Shown here: positions 5,860 to 23,375 of the stretch, piece after piece | Numbering within the stretch: position 1 is the stretch's first letter | How the letters are laid out: every line of letters begins with the position of its first letter | Origin: a virus | Reading direction: 5' to 3' (one strand) | Length of the DNA stretch: 64,000 nucleotides | Virus record (IMG/VR): IMGVR_UViG_3300045988_020586 | The notes under the pieces: model-generated | What the model was told of the DNA's origin: nothing | Databases searched by the model: none | What the model saw: only the letters and a program-made list of their open reading frames with translations | Made by a program: the position numbers and the translations under genes

Positions 5860-6700
5860 CGGGAGGGTGTGGACGTGAGGGGAGTCGACAAAATCTTCAA
5901 GTTCATTGCAACTATTCCACTCTGCTCCACGTTATATTTATATGGAACAGATAAAGAAATATATGCAAAACAGAAAGTTAATAACTTTCGTTTGTGATTG
6001 TTGTGGAAAAGAAGCTCAAAAACCTCTTTCCGAATACAACAGAAACAAGAAACTTGGTAGGAAGAATTTTTGTAGTAGAAGTTGTGCAATTCGTTATGCT
6101 AATAAAAATAAATTACATACATTTACAGATAAATGTAGAGAACATCTTTTAAGTATTTGCAACAATCAAATAGACGAATATACCGATTTTAGATATATCC
6201 TTAGAAGTGTCTATAAAAGATTTAAAGAAGTAGATATAGATTTAGAGTATCTAAAACAACTTTGGGAGACACAAAAAGGAATTTGCCCTTATACTGGTAT
6301 AAAATTAAAGCTTCCAACATATAAAAGCCATAACTTCTATTTTGATTGTGCATCTTTAGACAGAATAGATTCTTCTAAAGGCTACGTTAAAGGAAATGTT
6401 CAATTCATATCATTACCTATAAATTATATGAAATCTACTAAATCAGATATTGAAATCAGACAATTTCTTAAACAAATTTCTTCTTACACTTCACATTTCT
6501 GCGAAGATGAGACTATCTCTTCACCTAAAGAGGTGTTGGGCGCTCGAGCTGGTAATTAAGAAGACTATACTTCTCCAGTAGTCGTTGCACTTTCTTGTGG
6601 TGTACCACAAGCTTAGCTCAGGGTTAGCATGAACAATACTAGCTTTGAGCTATTATTGTTTTTAGCCTTCCTTGAATTCACCCAATATGGGCTCGGTAAG
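5860..6700 (+). mobile_element. group I intron-like element carrying an HNH ORF; boundaries and host exons unresolved
   Basis: P7-like GAGACTA 6509-6515 and TAGTC 6579-6583, flanking hairpins CACCT-AAAG-AGGTG and AGAAG/CTTCT. P9-like CTTGTGG-TGTA-CCACAAG 6594-6611. Same layout as the two splicing-competent introns in this window. Confidence 0.35.
5942..6559 (+). CDS. HNH-family homing endonuclease
   Basis: Zn-ribbon-like CDCCGKE...CSRSC at the N-terminus. C-terminal ASLDRIDSSKGYVKGNVQFIS motif typical of phage HNH endonucleases. ATG at 5942 (the track ORF begins at 5906). No in-frame TAG. Confidence 0.75.
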   Translation: MEQIKKYMQNRKLITFVCDCCGKEAQKPLSEYNRNKKLGRKNFCSRSCAIRYANKNKLHTFTDKCREHLLSICNNQIDEYTDFRYILRSVYKRFKEVDIDLEYLKQLWETQKGICPYTGIKLKLPTYKSHNFYFDCASLDRIDSSKGYVKGNVQFISLPINYMKSTKSDIEIRQFLKQISSYTSHFCEDETISSPKEVLGARAGN

Positions 6701-6897
6701 AACCCCTGTCCAAACAGATTATTTCATACACACTGTACATTTGTTTTGTAAATGTCCTGATGATCAGTCAGAACATTTGATTTAAACCACTTTAGGTGCG
6801 TTCTAAGGCATTTTTGCGACACTTGTGGTTAATTACTCCACTCGGTGACATACTCTGCCTCAGAATGCATTAGAACATGGTTGAAAATATATAGGAA

Positions 6898-9035: not shown

Positions 9036-9064
9036 GTTTTAAAGATTCACGGAATCATCTATTG

Positions 9065-9137
9065 TGATACATATGGGACTCGAACCCATGACCCATAGAT
9101 TAAAAATCTATTGCTCTACCAACTGAGCTAATGTATC
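9065..9137 (-). tRNA. tRNA-Lys (anticodon UUU)
   Basis: Hand-folded cloverleaf: acceptor GATACAT/ATGTATC, D-arm GCTC-AGTTGGTA-GAGC, anticodon arm ATAGA-TTTTTAA-TCTAT, T-arm ATGGG-TTCGAGT-CCCAT. Confidence 0.85.
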
Positions 9138-9229
9138 AAAAGAAGGAATACACACATACACCTAGTATTCGTTTAAGTATGCCCTCCTACAGCGGTTACC
9201 AGGAACGCCGCACCACCTCTTCCTTCTTG

Positions 9230-9303
9230 TGGACCAGCTAGGGTTTGAACCTAGGACCTCCAGATTATGAGTCTGTTGCTCTAACCGACTGAGCTACAAG
9301 TCC
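9230..9303 (-). tRNA. tRNA with CAU anticodon (Met, or Ile2 if lysidine-modified)
   Basis: Acceptor GGACTTG/CTGGTCC (one mismatch, one G-U), D-arm GCTC-AGTCGGTTA-GAGC, anticodon loop CTCATAA, T-arm CTAGG-TTCAAAC-CCTAG. Confidence 0.8.
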
Positions 9304-12387: not shown

Positions 12388-12681
12388 TTACTTGTTAATT
12401 AAGTTGTCTACTTTGGATTTTGCTTCTAAGTAATCACTACCATAATCTGTTGCAAGATCTGTATCCATAAGATCAAGATTATGTGTTCCATTGAGAGAGT
12501 CAAGCAATGTTTCGACACATGTATAGTATCTTTCATATGCTTCTATCTTTTTCTCTGCTTTTTTGCCCTTACCTGTATGGTAATTTGACATAAAGCAGGC
12601 ACCCACAAAGCAGCCTAATACTGCTCCTACTAACAATAAATTCATGTTGTCCATAAAACGATGTACTTTATTCTTTTCCAT
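12388..12681 (-). CDS. small membrane protein
   Basis: 97 aa with TM segment LLLVGAVLGCFVGACF. Confidence 0.6.
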   Translation of the reverse strand: MEKNKVHRFMDNMNLLLVGAVLGCFVGACFMSNYHTGKGKKAEKKIEAYERYYTCVETLLDSLNGTHNLDLMDTDLATDYGSDYLEAKSKVDNLINK

Positions 12682-12713
12682 ATATATAATTATTGATTAA
12701 TATACATAATAAA

Positions 12714-12743
12714 AACGTGCCTATCTTCACAGACCAGCACGTT
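12714..12743. repeat. hairpin family B copy 1 (loop CTATCTTCACAGACCA)
   Basis: Perfect 7-bp stem AACGTGC/GCACGTT; invariant 16-nt loop 12721-12736. Lies 33 nt upstream of the start of gene 12388-12681. Confidence 0.7.
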
Positions 12744-12817
12744 GAGCATCGAAATAAAACCTACGTCACTTAGTAAAAGATGATGTAAGAAAATCGGTAT
12801 GGTAAAAAACAAATTGA

Positions 12818-12936
12818 AGTGGTTACTGGACTCGAACCGTCGCTATGTTGCGCTTTACTATAGCCAAGTACAATATCCATATAATGCATTTGTACATAGT
12901 ATACCCTCTTGCTTTAGCAAGTGTATAATAACCACT
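12818..12936 (-). ncRNA. 119-nt multi-stem element closed by an 8-bp helix, with a T-loop-like GGTTCGAGTCC
   Basis: Closing helix AGTGGTTA 12818-12825 / TAACCACT 12929-12936. Internal hairpins on the minus strand: TATAC..CTTGC-TAAA-GCAAG..GTATA, GTACAA..TTGTAC, GCTAT..ATAGC. Not a canonical tRNA. Confidence 0.3.
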
Positions 12937-13221
12937 ATCCGTCTCTCCAGATTGTCATAGAGACTGGGTCTACATTTGACAGATTGCACCTTTTGCAAAT
13001 AGGCTGTAGTTACCGTATCTCAGTTTTACACGTAAACCTATTGCCTATAGACGACTCACCCTCTGTGTTCTACAATCGACATCTTATAGCTTTGCAAGTA
13101 CCATAAGCACGTGTTGTAGTCATGGGCTTGGGACCATGAACGCCACATTACTGCCTACGATTTATCACGTTAGCGTAGGCGCTCCGTCATCCTAGTTTAT
13201 ATACCGCATGAGATAACGGTT

Positions 13222-13253
13222 TAATACAACTATCTTCACAGACCATTGTATTA
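13222..13253. repeat. hairpin family B copy 2 (loop CTATCTTCACAGACCA)
   Basis: Perfect 8-bp stem TAATACAA/TTGTATTA; loop 13230-13245. Confidence 0.7.
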
Positions 13254-13370
13254 TGAGGTCTATTCGCGCTTTGAGTAATGAATCAGACTACACCATGATG
13301 CAACATGTGTAGTTTCGTCTAGGTCTCATCAGTGATGATTTTAGACTCTCCCTAGCTGAGTTTAAATAAA

Positions 13371-13402
13371 ACATACCACTATCTTCACAGACCATGGTAT
13401 GT
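13371..13402. repeat. hairpin family B copy 3 (loop CTATCTTCACAGACCA)
   Basis: Perfect 8-bp stem ACATACCA/TGGTATGT; loop 13379-13394. Confidence 0.7.
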
Positions 13403-13552
13403 GCCAAACCTATTGTTGTTACACTTAACAACTACAACCTACATCCTAACTAAAAAACCTGACATTTATTTGATTATTATACGTCTTTATTTGTCTTTCC
13501 AAATGCCAACGCTTATTTATACTCTTGCGTATAGAGTTATGTTATTATACAT

Positions 13553-20885: not shown

Positions 20886-20956
20886 CGCGGGATGGTGAAA
20901 TGGTATCACGTGTGGCTCATAACCATAGATTGCTAGTTCGACTCTAGCTCCCGCAA
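20886..20956 (+). tRNA. tRNA-Met-like (anticodon CAU), C1-A72 mismatch
   Basis: Acceptor CGCGGGA/TCCCGCA with an unpaired first position as in bacterial initiator tRNA. Anticodon arm TGTGG-CTCATAA-CCATA (CAT at 20918-20920). T-arm GCTAG-TTCGACT-CTAGC. Confidence 0.8.
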
Positions 20957-21174
20957 CACTGAGCTTCGATTGTGTGGTGTTCTACATATTTGGCCACCAG
21001 GAGCGAAATTGATATCAGAAAAATATGTCGGCTACAATGGTTTAAAGTGTAGCAATGTAGTTTTAGGCAGATAAAAAGCTCGGTAGCCTAAGGTGAGCTT
21101 CTACAATATTGCCCATTCGCGTACCAGCTAGCGCACCGGGCTCTTTTGTCCAATGAATAATTGAATATATAATA

Positions 21175-22446: not shown

Positions 22447-23375
22447 AGAATATTGATACGTTATTGAGTATCAATGCAACCAACTCTATTCGCATATCGT
22501 TATGATGATATAACTAAACACAAAATATCATGATAACAAAAATTTGCAAACAATGTGGTAAGGAATTTGATGTACCAGAATACAGAAAGGATGCTAAATA
22601 CTGCTGTGACGAATGTAAACACAAAGCACTGCATGGAGATTTAAATTGTGAGTGTGAGGTTTGTGGCAAGAAATTCCACTTAAAACCATACGCTCTTAAA
22701 AAGAGTAAACATCATACATGTAGCCGCGAGTGTTTAAACAAACTTAAAAGTACATTATATAAAGGTGAAGGAAATCATCAATATGGTCTAAAAGGCGATA
22801 AGAATTCATCTTTCAAAGGAAACGTAATCCTGCGTAAGAACAATGGACTAATCGAGAGAATGATCTACAATCCTAGACACCCATACGCTGATCGTAATGG
22901 TAGGATTAAGGAACACAGATTAATAGTTGAGCAGAATTACAAAATGTTTGACGATAAATACTTTGAAGTTATAAACGGAGAGCATTATTTAAAGAAGAAT
23001 GTAGATGTACATCACATTAACTTTAATCATAACGATAATAGAATAGAAAACCTAATTCCCTTGACTAGAGCGGAACATACAAAGCTTCATAACCAAAATG
23101 AAGTTATATACAGAAATGAGAAGGGAATGATAATTGGTGTCTTAAAACAGGGTGAATTGCTGGAAAAGCCTGAAGAGGTCAATCAGCAGCCAAGCTTGGG
23201 TAGTGATACCCTTGAAGGTTCAGAGACTAACAGCCGAGTCTTACGAGACAGTAATGCTGACACGAGTGCCCTGCCCGGAAACGGTGAAGATATAGTCCGA
23301 TCTACTGATAACAAAATAAACAGTAGAAATATAGAGATAAAGAGCTCTATAGATTAACAACTCCTAATTTTGTTG
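22447..23375 (+). mobile_element. group I intron in dUTPase gene (junctions +/- a few nt)
   Basis: Splits motif III GVIDA|DYRGEI. Exon 1 ends in T and the intron ends in G. Core strings CAGAGACTA 23221-23229 and GATATAGTCC 23289-23298; GNRA hairpin CCG-GAAA-CGG. Contains an HNH ORF. Confidence 0.7.
22530..23357 (+). CDS. intron-encoded HNH homing endonuclease
   Basis: 275 aa. Cys-rich N-terminus and VHHINFNHNDNRIENLIPLTRAEHTKLH. No in-frame TAG. Confidence 0.85.
   Translation: MITKICKQCGKEFDVPEYRKDAKYCCDECKHKALHGDLNCECEVCGKKFHLKPYALKKSKHHTCSRECLNKLKSTLYKGEGNHQYGLKGDKNSSFKGNVILRKNNGLIERMIYNPRHPYADRNGRIKEHRLIVEQNYKMFDDKYFEVINGEHYLKKNVDVHHINFNHNDNRIENLIPLTRAEHTKLHNQNEVIYRNEKGMIIGVLKQGELLEKPEEVNQQPSLGSDTLEGSETNSRVLRDSNADTSALPGNGEDIVRSTDNKINSRNIEIKSSID

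Follow-up and report, generated by a model that had tools for sequence, protein, structure and literature searches.

An apparently undescribed RNA stem-loop with a nearly invariant apex, widespread in gut phages

Three hairpins in a non-coding tract

The DNA analysed here, a stretch of 64,000 nucleotides (nt) from a virus (IMG/VR virus record IMGVR_UViG_3300045988_020586; hereafter the window, meaning the whole stretch), carries three short hairpins in the tract 12682-13552, which contains no convincing open reading frame (ORF) and whose homologue in the crAss-like phage cr7_1 (Crassvirales, Suoliviridae, Burzaovirus; 77.6% identity) has no annotation. A previous reading made from the sequence alone (the sequence-only reading) had pointed to these hairpins and described the tract as free of ORFs, and our results agree with it on most matters of sequence. 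An exact-word search located CTATCTTCACAGACCA on the plus strand exactly three times, at 12721-12736, 13230-13245 and 13379-13394, as that reading had it; on the minus strand this 16-mer reads UGGUCUGUGAAGAUAG. A perfect inverted repeat of 7-8 bp encloses every copy, and the three pairs (AACGTGC/GCACGTT, TAATACAA/TTGTATTA and ACATACCA/TGGTATGT), all of which we verified, are unrelated to one another. Besides the three exact copies the window holds no match with fewer than three mismatches, and a shuffled window yields a mean of 0.59 matches even when up to three mismatches are allowed. The "shorter relative" that had been proposed at 694-711 has to be given up: this is ccgcgATCTTCACccgcg, which has 8 nt in common with the motif and is not found by the covariance model described below, whose best match in the window other than the copies themselves reaches 12 bits (E ~1). 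No further hairpin family with a common loop was found in the window among perfect stems of at least 7 bp.

All genes around the hairpins lie on the minus strand, on which the copies follow one another in the order 3, 2, 1. Copy 1 sits just 5' of gene 12388-12681, as had been noticed, about 32 nt from the ATG of this minus-strand ORF (12681-12388), which is the first gene of a long leftward cluster. A stable stem-loop with a U-tract directly 3' of it, the layout of an intrinsic terminator, is seen at copy 3 (UUUUAUUU) and copy 1 (UUUUUAUU). Copy 2, which lies between the predicted cleavage site of a hammerhead and a twister-like element, has no U-tract. A simple terminator scan of the window missed all three hairpins because it limits the loop to 3-8 nt and allows no mismatch. 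The analyses below show that the three elements are copies of one transcribed RNA stem-loop, encoded on the minus strand of the window and ending in a nearly invariant apex.

Structure and distribution of the stem-loop

Folded as RNA (RNAfold), the minus strand forms a variable stem that is continued by a U·G pair, a 1x1 G/A mismatch and 4 bp (G·U, U-A, C-G and U-A, in this order) and capped by a GUGA tetraloop of the GNRA type. Across the three copies the folding energies are -11.4 to -15.7 kcal/mol for the minus strand versus -5.7 to -10.5 kcal/mol for the plus strand, with minus-strand z-scores of -4 to -4.9, while folding with DNA parameters gives weak values of -4 to -7.5 kcal/mol that are about equal on both strands. 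The sequence-only reading had taken the conserved 16 nt for a single-stranded loop; folding and compensatory changes in the apex exclude this, since 12 of these nucleotides make up a helix and its GNRA tetraloop. Its broader proposal, that selection maintains a secondary structure whose top is conserved and whose stem co-varies freely, is borne out by the covariation reported below.

The exact 16-mer occurs in at least 120 viral contigs and at least 120 metagenome contigs. Searching other genomes for the word together with its inverted repeats, as had been suggested, confirmed the association: among the viral copies listed, 120 of 126 are flanked by a stem of at least 5 bp, representing 73 distinct 36-mers, and the same holds for 58 of the 86 distinct metagenome copies listed, many of whose stems are new. 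The family comprises more than 100 lower stems that are unrelated to each other. Cellular genomes served as a negative control, the 14-mer core being expected thousands of times by chance in a collection of 596 Gb; a flanking stem of at least 5 bp accompanied the core in only 4 of the 120 matches listed, and nearly all others were bare and chance-like. All four hairpin-embedded cases are from Bacteroidales (Bacteroides reticulotermitis, Prevotella sp., Mediterranea sp. and Sangeribacter sp.), and a fifth, partial case is from Bacteroides. The carriers include crAss-like and other gut phages, on contigs of 30 to 250 kb, as well as prophage-like and chromosomal loci of Bacteroidales. A locus has one to three hairpins, even where at least 20 genes for transfer RNA (tRNA) are present.

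About 95% of the 73 distinct viral 36-mers have pairs at stem positions 1-6, and the mismatches comprise 30 of the G·U type against 6 of the A·C type, an excess which identifies the coding strand (minus in the window) as the structured one. In 116 distinct sequences, 97.3% of the cells are paired versus 66% after shuffling; the covariation score is 0.75, compared with 0.15 for shuffled sequences (0 of 500 reach the observed value) and 0.07-0.13 for slid registers. The lower stem, of 6-8 bp, is free in sequence and variable at every position, with changes on both sides at seven of its eight pairs. Compensatory changes extend into the apex, where C5-G12 is replaced by U-A (4 cases) or A-U (3 cases), U6-A11 by C-G, U4-A13 by C-G, U1·G16 by C-G (9 cases) or U-A (2 cases), and G3·U14 by A-U (one case). 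At the mismatch, position 2 is free and A15 is retained, and the loop variants are GUAA, GCGA and GAGA, all of the GNRA type, or have one extra base (GUGAU). Such changes are also seen in orthologues of the window's own copies: those of copy 1 in four related contigs (L023, L051, L308 and L350) read C-GGUUCGUGAGGAUAG, combining C5 to U with U6-A11 to C-G, and that of copy 2 in L343, CAGCCUGAGAAGGUAG, combines U4-A13 to C-G with a GAGA loop.

A covariance model built from 54 distinct copies matches only the three copies in the window, and at other loci it recovers many diverged copies beside exact ones. No conserved column was found outside the hairpin in either the 54 or the 116 distinct sequences, save for T-richness 3' of it. 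Three other identities for the conserved word were rejected. A mimic of an anticodon loop, with CUGUGAA as a 7-nt loop like that of tRNA-His, does not agree with the register of the flanking stem or with the compensation seen at 5-12 and 6-11, which only the GNRA hairpin accommodates; an antisense to a tRNA 3' end (plus strand ...TTCACAG-A-CCA) is unsupported, the plus strand not being the structured one; and the P1 helix of a group I intron, with its U·G pair at the splice site, was dropped because no intron follows any copy.

Surroundings in the window and across the family

Read along the minus strand, the tract consists of a -7-like box, hairpin 3 with its U-tract, a hammerhead ribozyme, a 32-nt spacer, hairpin 2, 33 conserved nt, a twister-like element, an RNA of about 375 nt, hairpin 1 with its U-tract, a 32-nt spacer and the gene (Table 1). 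This whole arrangement is kept in 15 crAss-like contigs. The hammerhead begins 8 nt 3' of hairpin copy 3, has intact CUGAUGA and GAAAC cores, is predicted to cleave after GUC near 13287 and is conserved in the 15 relatives, in which the twister-like element and the preceding 33 nt, AACCGUUAUCUCAUGCGGUAUAUAAACUAGGAU, are nearly invariant. The conserved RNA of about 375 nt shows at least one compensatory hairpin change and a covarying CUUGC-UAAA-GCAAG hairpin; it ends in a T-loop-like GGTTCGAGTCC (12838-12828) followed by AGTAACCAC, which can pair with AGTGGTTAT about 105 nt upstream. It has no Rfam match at E up to 10 and no tRNA or transfer-messenger RNA (tmRNA) match, and its fold z-score is only -1.2. 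Taken together, the window hairpins appear to punctuate a ribozyme-rich leader RNA 5' of a leftward operon of small genes.

Table 1. Positions of the hairpins and of other features in the window (MFE, minimum free energy)
Feature	Position	Strand	Description
Hairpin copy 3	13369..13404	-	First on the transcribed strand; stem ACAUACCA/UGGUAUGU (13402-13371), apex UGGUCUGUGAAGAUAG; covariance-model match 48.3 bits, E 4e-12; RNA MFE -15.7 kcal/mol, z -4.0
Hairpin copy 2	13220..13255	-	Stem UAAUACAA/UUGUAUUA (13253-13222), apex UGGUCUGUGAAGAUAG; covariance-model match 46.3 bits; RNA MFE -11.4 kcal/mol, z -4.9
Hairpin copy 1	12711..12746	-	Stem AACGUGC/GCACGUU (12743-12714), apex UGGUCUGUGAAGAUAG, then UUUUUAUUAUG; covariance-model match 49.3 bits; RNA MFE -15.3 kcal/mol, z -4.0
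Putative promoter box TAGGTTTG	13405..13412	-	Matches the Bacteroides -7 box TAnnTTTG; 2 nt 5' of hairpin copy 3
RAGATH-1-type hammerhead ribozyme	13281..13362	-	Rfam RF03152, 71.9 bits (gathering score 56.3), E 3.5e-10
Candidate twister (type P5)-like element	13122..13188	-	RF02684, 23.6 bits, below the gathering score of 37.6; E 0.022 (1.2-kb search)
Conserved non-coding RNA, ~375 nt	12747..13121	-	Alignment of 15 crAss-like relatives
Group I intron	6489..6781	-	81 bits
Group I intron	23077..23318	+	65 bits
tRNA gene	9064..9137	-	
tRNA gene	9229..9303	-	
tRNA gene	20886..20957	+	

Across the family, context was counted for 108 distinct hairpins, 107 of which have enough flank for the downstream and upstream tests. 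At most one of the 108 lies inside an ORF, and on each side about 75 neighbouring genes are co-oriented with the hairpin versus about 5 that are opposed. A U-tract is found 3' of the hairpin in 47 of 107 cases (44%), compared with 7 of 107 in the mirrored control, and 31 (29%) have the start of a tRNA or tmRNA on the same strand no more than 25 nt downstream, compared with 0.46% for random positions. These starts are 1-20 nt away, 27 of the 31 at 1-7 nt; upstream tRNAs end 23-84 nt from the hairpin. Of the 107, 28 have a stop codon on the same strand at a distance of 9-101 nt upstream, and 26 an ORF start codon 8-119 nt downstream. Six hairpins have a convergent gene downstream. In Rfam searches the feature directly 3' of a hairpin was a tmRNA in L109, an intron-containing tRNA in L038, L119 and L090, and a hammerhead in L023. 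Although the consensus of the Bacteroides -7 promoter box, TAnnTTTG, is matched 5' of copy 3, we rejected a promoter immediately upstream as a general feature: family-wide, TAnnTTTG or TTTG is only about 2-fold enriched in the 0-12 nt upstream of the hairpins. A linked protein gene common to all loci was likewise rejected, as an all-against-all BLAST of the 2167 ORFs within about 7 kb gave only lineage-specific clusters, HNH endonucleases and a family of divergently placed ORFs that look repressor-like by eye.

Several individual loci are worth recording. A sRNA-like (small-RNA-like) locus of about 90 nt on the chromosome of Prevotella sp. P5-92 (L215, 3400-3580) is made up of a -7 box (TACCTTTG), a spacer of about 45 nt, a hairpin with the same apex and a U-tract. 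Its neighbours are two housekeeping genes, maf-like and yfcE-like, that converge on it; no prophage is obvious around it, and it is one of the six convergent cases. On a 101-kb viral contig (L115, 1806-7602, minus strand), RAGATH-20, RAGATH-9, a hatchet ribozyme and RAGATH-7 occur together with one hairpin in 6 kb. In L109 (1803-2239, plus strand) the hairpin is 16 nt 5' of a phage tmRNA gene, with an apparent 5' fragment of a tRNA in between, and L023, a relative of the window, encodes a permuted tmRNA (6173-6408, plus strand) some 6 kb downstream from its hairpin region. A hammerhead core (CUGAUGA-stem-GAAAC) recognised by eye follows the hairpin by at most about 10 nt at ~6135-6180 of L257 and in L319, which has the same sequence. 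Finally, a 366-amino-acid ORF in L063 (715-1815, minus strand), whose N-terminus is RuvC-like and which also has an arginine-rich helix and an HNH motif, appears IscB-like by eye and clusters with shorter HNH ORFs found near hairpins in 14 loci.

Proposed role and likeness to known systems

The association of the hairpin with devices that create RNA ends just downstream of it, namely U-tracts, ribonuclease (RNase) P sites and ribozymes, is strong. With moderate confidence, we therefore favour the reading that the hairpin is a stem-loop marking an RNA 3' end or boundary, either as a terminator or as a cleavage-protected end, with its apex as a handle for a trans-acting factor. Among the roles offered by the sequence-only reading, binding of a regulator, processing or stability at the RNA level is the class that is best supported. 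Where a U-tract follows, as at copies 1 and 3, the upstream transcript would terminate at the hairpin; otherwise it would be cut a few nucleotides downstream, either by RNase P at the 5' end of a tRNA or tmRNA or by a neighbouring self-cleaving ribozyme. The upstream RNA would then keep a 3'-terminal stem-loop whose overhang gives 3'-exonucleases too little to hold on to. For RNase R, RNase II and PNPase to degrade a stem-loop, its single-stranded 3' tail must be about 7-10 nt long or longer, and the spacing of 1-7 nt between hairpin and tRNA would be explained by the resistance of an overhang of at most 7 nt. In the six convergent cases only a role at the 3' end is possible.

The invariant apex would be what the conserved trans-acting factor recognises, and we infer a specific partner because stability alone cannot explain the conserved wobble pairs, the A mismatch and the GNRA loop. 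Since the hairpins found in cellular genomes are restricted to Bacteroidales, this factor is most likely a host protein, a phage protein being less likely. RbpB, the characterised global RNA-binding protein of Bacteroides, binds single-stranded regions (PMC11697453) and is thus not an obvious partner for the apex.

Several observations weigh against a boundary stem-loop of this kind. Neither a U-tract nor a detected tRNA lies immediately downstream in 34 of 107 cases (~32%), copy 2 among them; many of the 34 have odd tRNA-like sequences or hammerhead cores downstream when judged by eye. Copy 3 would not be 3'-terminal unless termination occurs, as the hammerhead would cleave about 85 nt farther downstream. 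The apex also looks more invariant than it is, partly by construction, because the collection was seeded with the exact 16-mer and variants turned up only near exact copies. Every functional step of the model, like the factor, is inferred. Two further points, that tight spacing to a downstream tRNA is equally expected of a 5'-leader element and that hairpins occur at the start of tRNA arrays more often than at their end (12 versus 4), bear directly on the alternative in which the hairpin belongs to the downstream tRNA, tmRNA, ribozyme or mRNA and acts as a 5' stabiliser, a folding insulator or a processing signal for an endonuclease or an RNase P cofactor. That alternative, which we think rather unlikely, also draws on the looser spacing of upstream tRNAs, on the ORF starts downstream of about a quarter of the hairpins (26 of 107), and on the Bacteroides-type -7 box found 1-7 nt upstream at several loci including copy 3, where the hairpin would form the 5' end of the transcript. 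RNase P, however, would remove the hairpin from tRNAs, so that it could not stabilise the mature product, and a stem-loop 1-7 nt from the cleavage site would occupy the leader region near that site to which RNase P protein normally binds. Moreover, in the six convergent cases the hairpin's strand carries no downstream feature to which it could belong, and the 44% of hairpins with U-tracts would terminate transcription ahead of their supposed cargo.

A phage or host protein could instead bind the GNRA apex on the nascent transcript and gate the downstream operon or stable-RNA genes in time, making the hairpin a factor-controlled terminator or an antitermination site of the nut/boxB type. The tetraloop closed by U-A, as in boxB-type hairpins, the GUGAU pentaloop variants and the strong enrichment of U-tracts are in keeping with this, as are the two U-tract copies that bracket the long leader before the window operon. 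In about 25 loci, moreover, a divergent ORF that looks repressor-like by eye (helix-turn-helix plus peptidase) lies 0.4-4 kb from the hairpin, recalling the geography of nutL and nutR. Yet neither a boxA-like nor any other conserved single-stranded element adjoins the hairpin in the 54 and 116 distinct sequences, over half of the copies have no U-tract, and several copies may occur in one locus, also inside tRNA arrays where termination would do harm. Near-identical apices in very different phages, not co-varying with phage lineage, argue in addition against an N-like partner that evolves fast. The ORFs within about 7 kb include no protein common to all loci, a search in which N-like proteins are too small and divergent to be excluded. 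We consider this explanation improbable, and the nut/boxB logic put forward by the sequence-only reading would apply only loosely.

The extruded DNA hairpin promoter named in the same reading fares worse. Structure alone cannot formally tell single-stranded DNA from RNA, G·T pairs are tolerated in DNA hairpins and crAss-like phages carry a virion RNA polymerase, which might suggest a promoter for an N4-type virion RNA polymerase or a recombination or replication signal. In place of the stem of 5-7 bp and the 3-nt loop of an N4 promoter, however, we found a 16-nt apex that folds into 4 bp and a tetraloop with covariation, and in place of a template-strand hairpin upstream of early genes, the wobble asymmetry and the orientation statistics indicate the coding strand of the neighbouring genes. 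DNA folding is weak and equal on both strands, the U-tract and tRNA-start associations are strand-specific features of RNA, and the motif also occurs in tRNA arrays, in prophage-like or chromosomal Bacteroidales loci and on contigs of very different size (30-250 kb), all of which makes a role as DNA very unlikely. We attach just as little credence to a new, very small self-cleaving or ligating ribozyme, or to a part without which the ribozymes nearby would not work. Neighbourhoods of this kind, with hammerhead, twister-like, hatchet and RAGATH RNAs, are where new ribozyme classes have been discovered, and the motif has conserved positions outside Watson-Crick pairing; but it is a plain, almost fully paired hairpin whose flanks conserve neither a junction nor a pseudoknot partner, most copies are nowhere near a ribozyme, and no Rfam ribozyme model matched it.

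To our knowledge, Bacteroidales lack Hfq, ProQ and CsrA. A tentative idea, to which we give a rather low probability, is that the apex is a docking handle for an RNA-binding factor of Bacteroidales common to host small RNAs and gut phages, and that phages release handle-bearing small RNAs through RNase P, hammerhead and twister cuts in order to exploit or titrate this factor, the tRNA- or ribozyme-flanked unit acting as an expression cassette or a decoy.

Should the boundary stem-loop reading be correct, few undescribed RNA motifs of human-gut phages would be as widespread or as well supported as this one, with well over 100 independent stems and compensatory changes in both helices. It would tie together three little-understood features of these genomes: the self-cleaving ribozyme clusters, the large arrays of tRNA and tmRNA genes, and the extended non-coding tracts found in crAss-like phages. 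The 34-nt hairpin would then be a bait for its protein in a bacterial order with largely unknown RNA-binding machinery, a portable part that provides an RNA end or terminator when Bacteroides or their phages are engineered, and a marker for annotating transcript boundaries in uncultured phage genomes.

The sequence-only reading knew of no described motif of this kind, and our searches agree. Rfam 15 gave no match over any hairpin at E up to 10 in the 1.2-kb search, and a search of the available literature with the core 13-mer (RNA and DNA forms, both strands) returned no paper. The motif is not described in papers on phage tRNA-linked theta ribozymes, 224 motifs, 10,006 viral csRNA candidates, MasB or RbpB; it might still be contained among the unnamed csRNA candidates or in the RAGATH supplement. 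RAGATH RNAs, reportedly the ribozyme-associated structured RNAs of Weinberg et al. 2015/2017, share its neighbourhood, as with the RAGATH-1 hammerhead between copies 3 and 2 or RAGATH-7, -9 and -20 with the hatchet ribozyme in L115; unlike them, the hairpin matches no Rfam 15 family at E up to 10, even in a search with 51 nt. The best scores of that search (13362-13412, minus strand) were for BTnc201/MasB (RF04177; 14.3 bits, gathering score 105) and Prevotella-2 (RF03043; 13.8 bits, gathering score 72). The 3' terminator hairpin of MasB and the GUGA hairpin of Prevotella-2 are, like ours, linked with Bacteroidales and have a lower stem, a small internal irregularity, a short upper stem and a U-tract, and the MasB consensus also has GUCU...GAUAG in common with the hairpin and a G/U-rich stretch upstream. 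Both scores are nevertheless far below the gathering scores, the shared positions are in part weakly conserved there and the MasB loops differ, so that these resemblances are only leads. Integron attC-like and IS200/REP-like single-stranded DNA hairpins were rejected as relatives, as they conserve the ends of the stem (R/L boxes, REP GTAG), whereas here the stem varies and the centre is conserved.

With the boxB hairpin of lambda-type nut sites, the motif shares its small size, its encoding by phages, its presumed action in cis and a GNRA-type loop closed by U-A. It differs in having no boxA, several copies per locus and a variable lower stem, in being often itself a putative terminator, and in presenting the same apex across distant phages, with no co-evolution with an N protein. 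The RNase III hairpins (R-sites) of phage T7 are intergenic punctuation hairpins, alike among themselves and co-oriented with the genes, that leave a protective 3' stem-loop on the upstream RNA. Our hairpins resemble them in position and orientation and probably also in the protective end, although with 12-14 pairs they are too short for a canonical RNase III substrate, and their conservation lies in the apex and the GNRA loop. There is also a likeness in layout to intrinsic terminators and 3' protective stem-loops, which are likewise stable, intergenic and co-oriented with transcription; the U-tract of many copies, including 1 and 3, and the frequent position shortly past a stop codon fit the same pattern. 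Intrinsic terminators, however, have no conserved loop or apex, whereas here 12-16 nt hardly vary, two wobble pairs and a mismatch among them, and over half of our copies have no U-tract and abut a tRNA, a tmRNA or a ribozyme instead. The motif appears to be a terminator or processing stem-loop whose apex is unusually conserved and presumably recognised by a factor.

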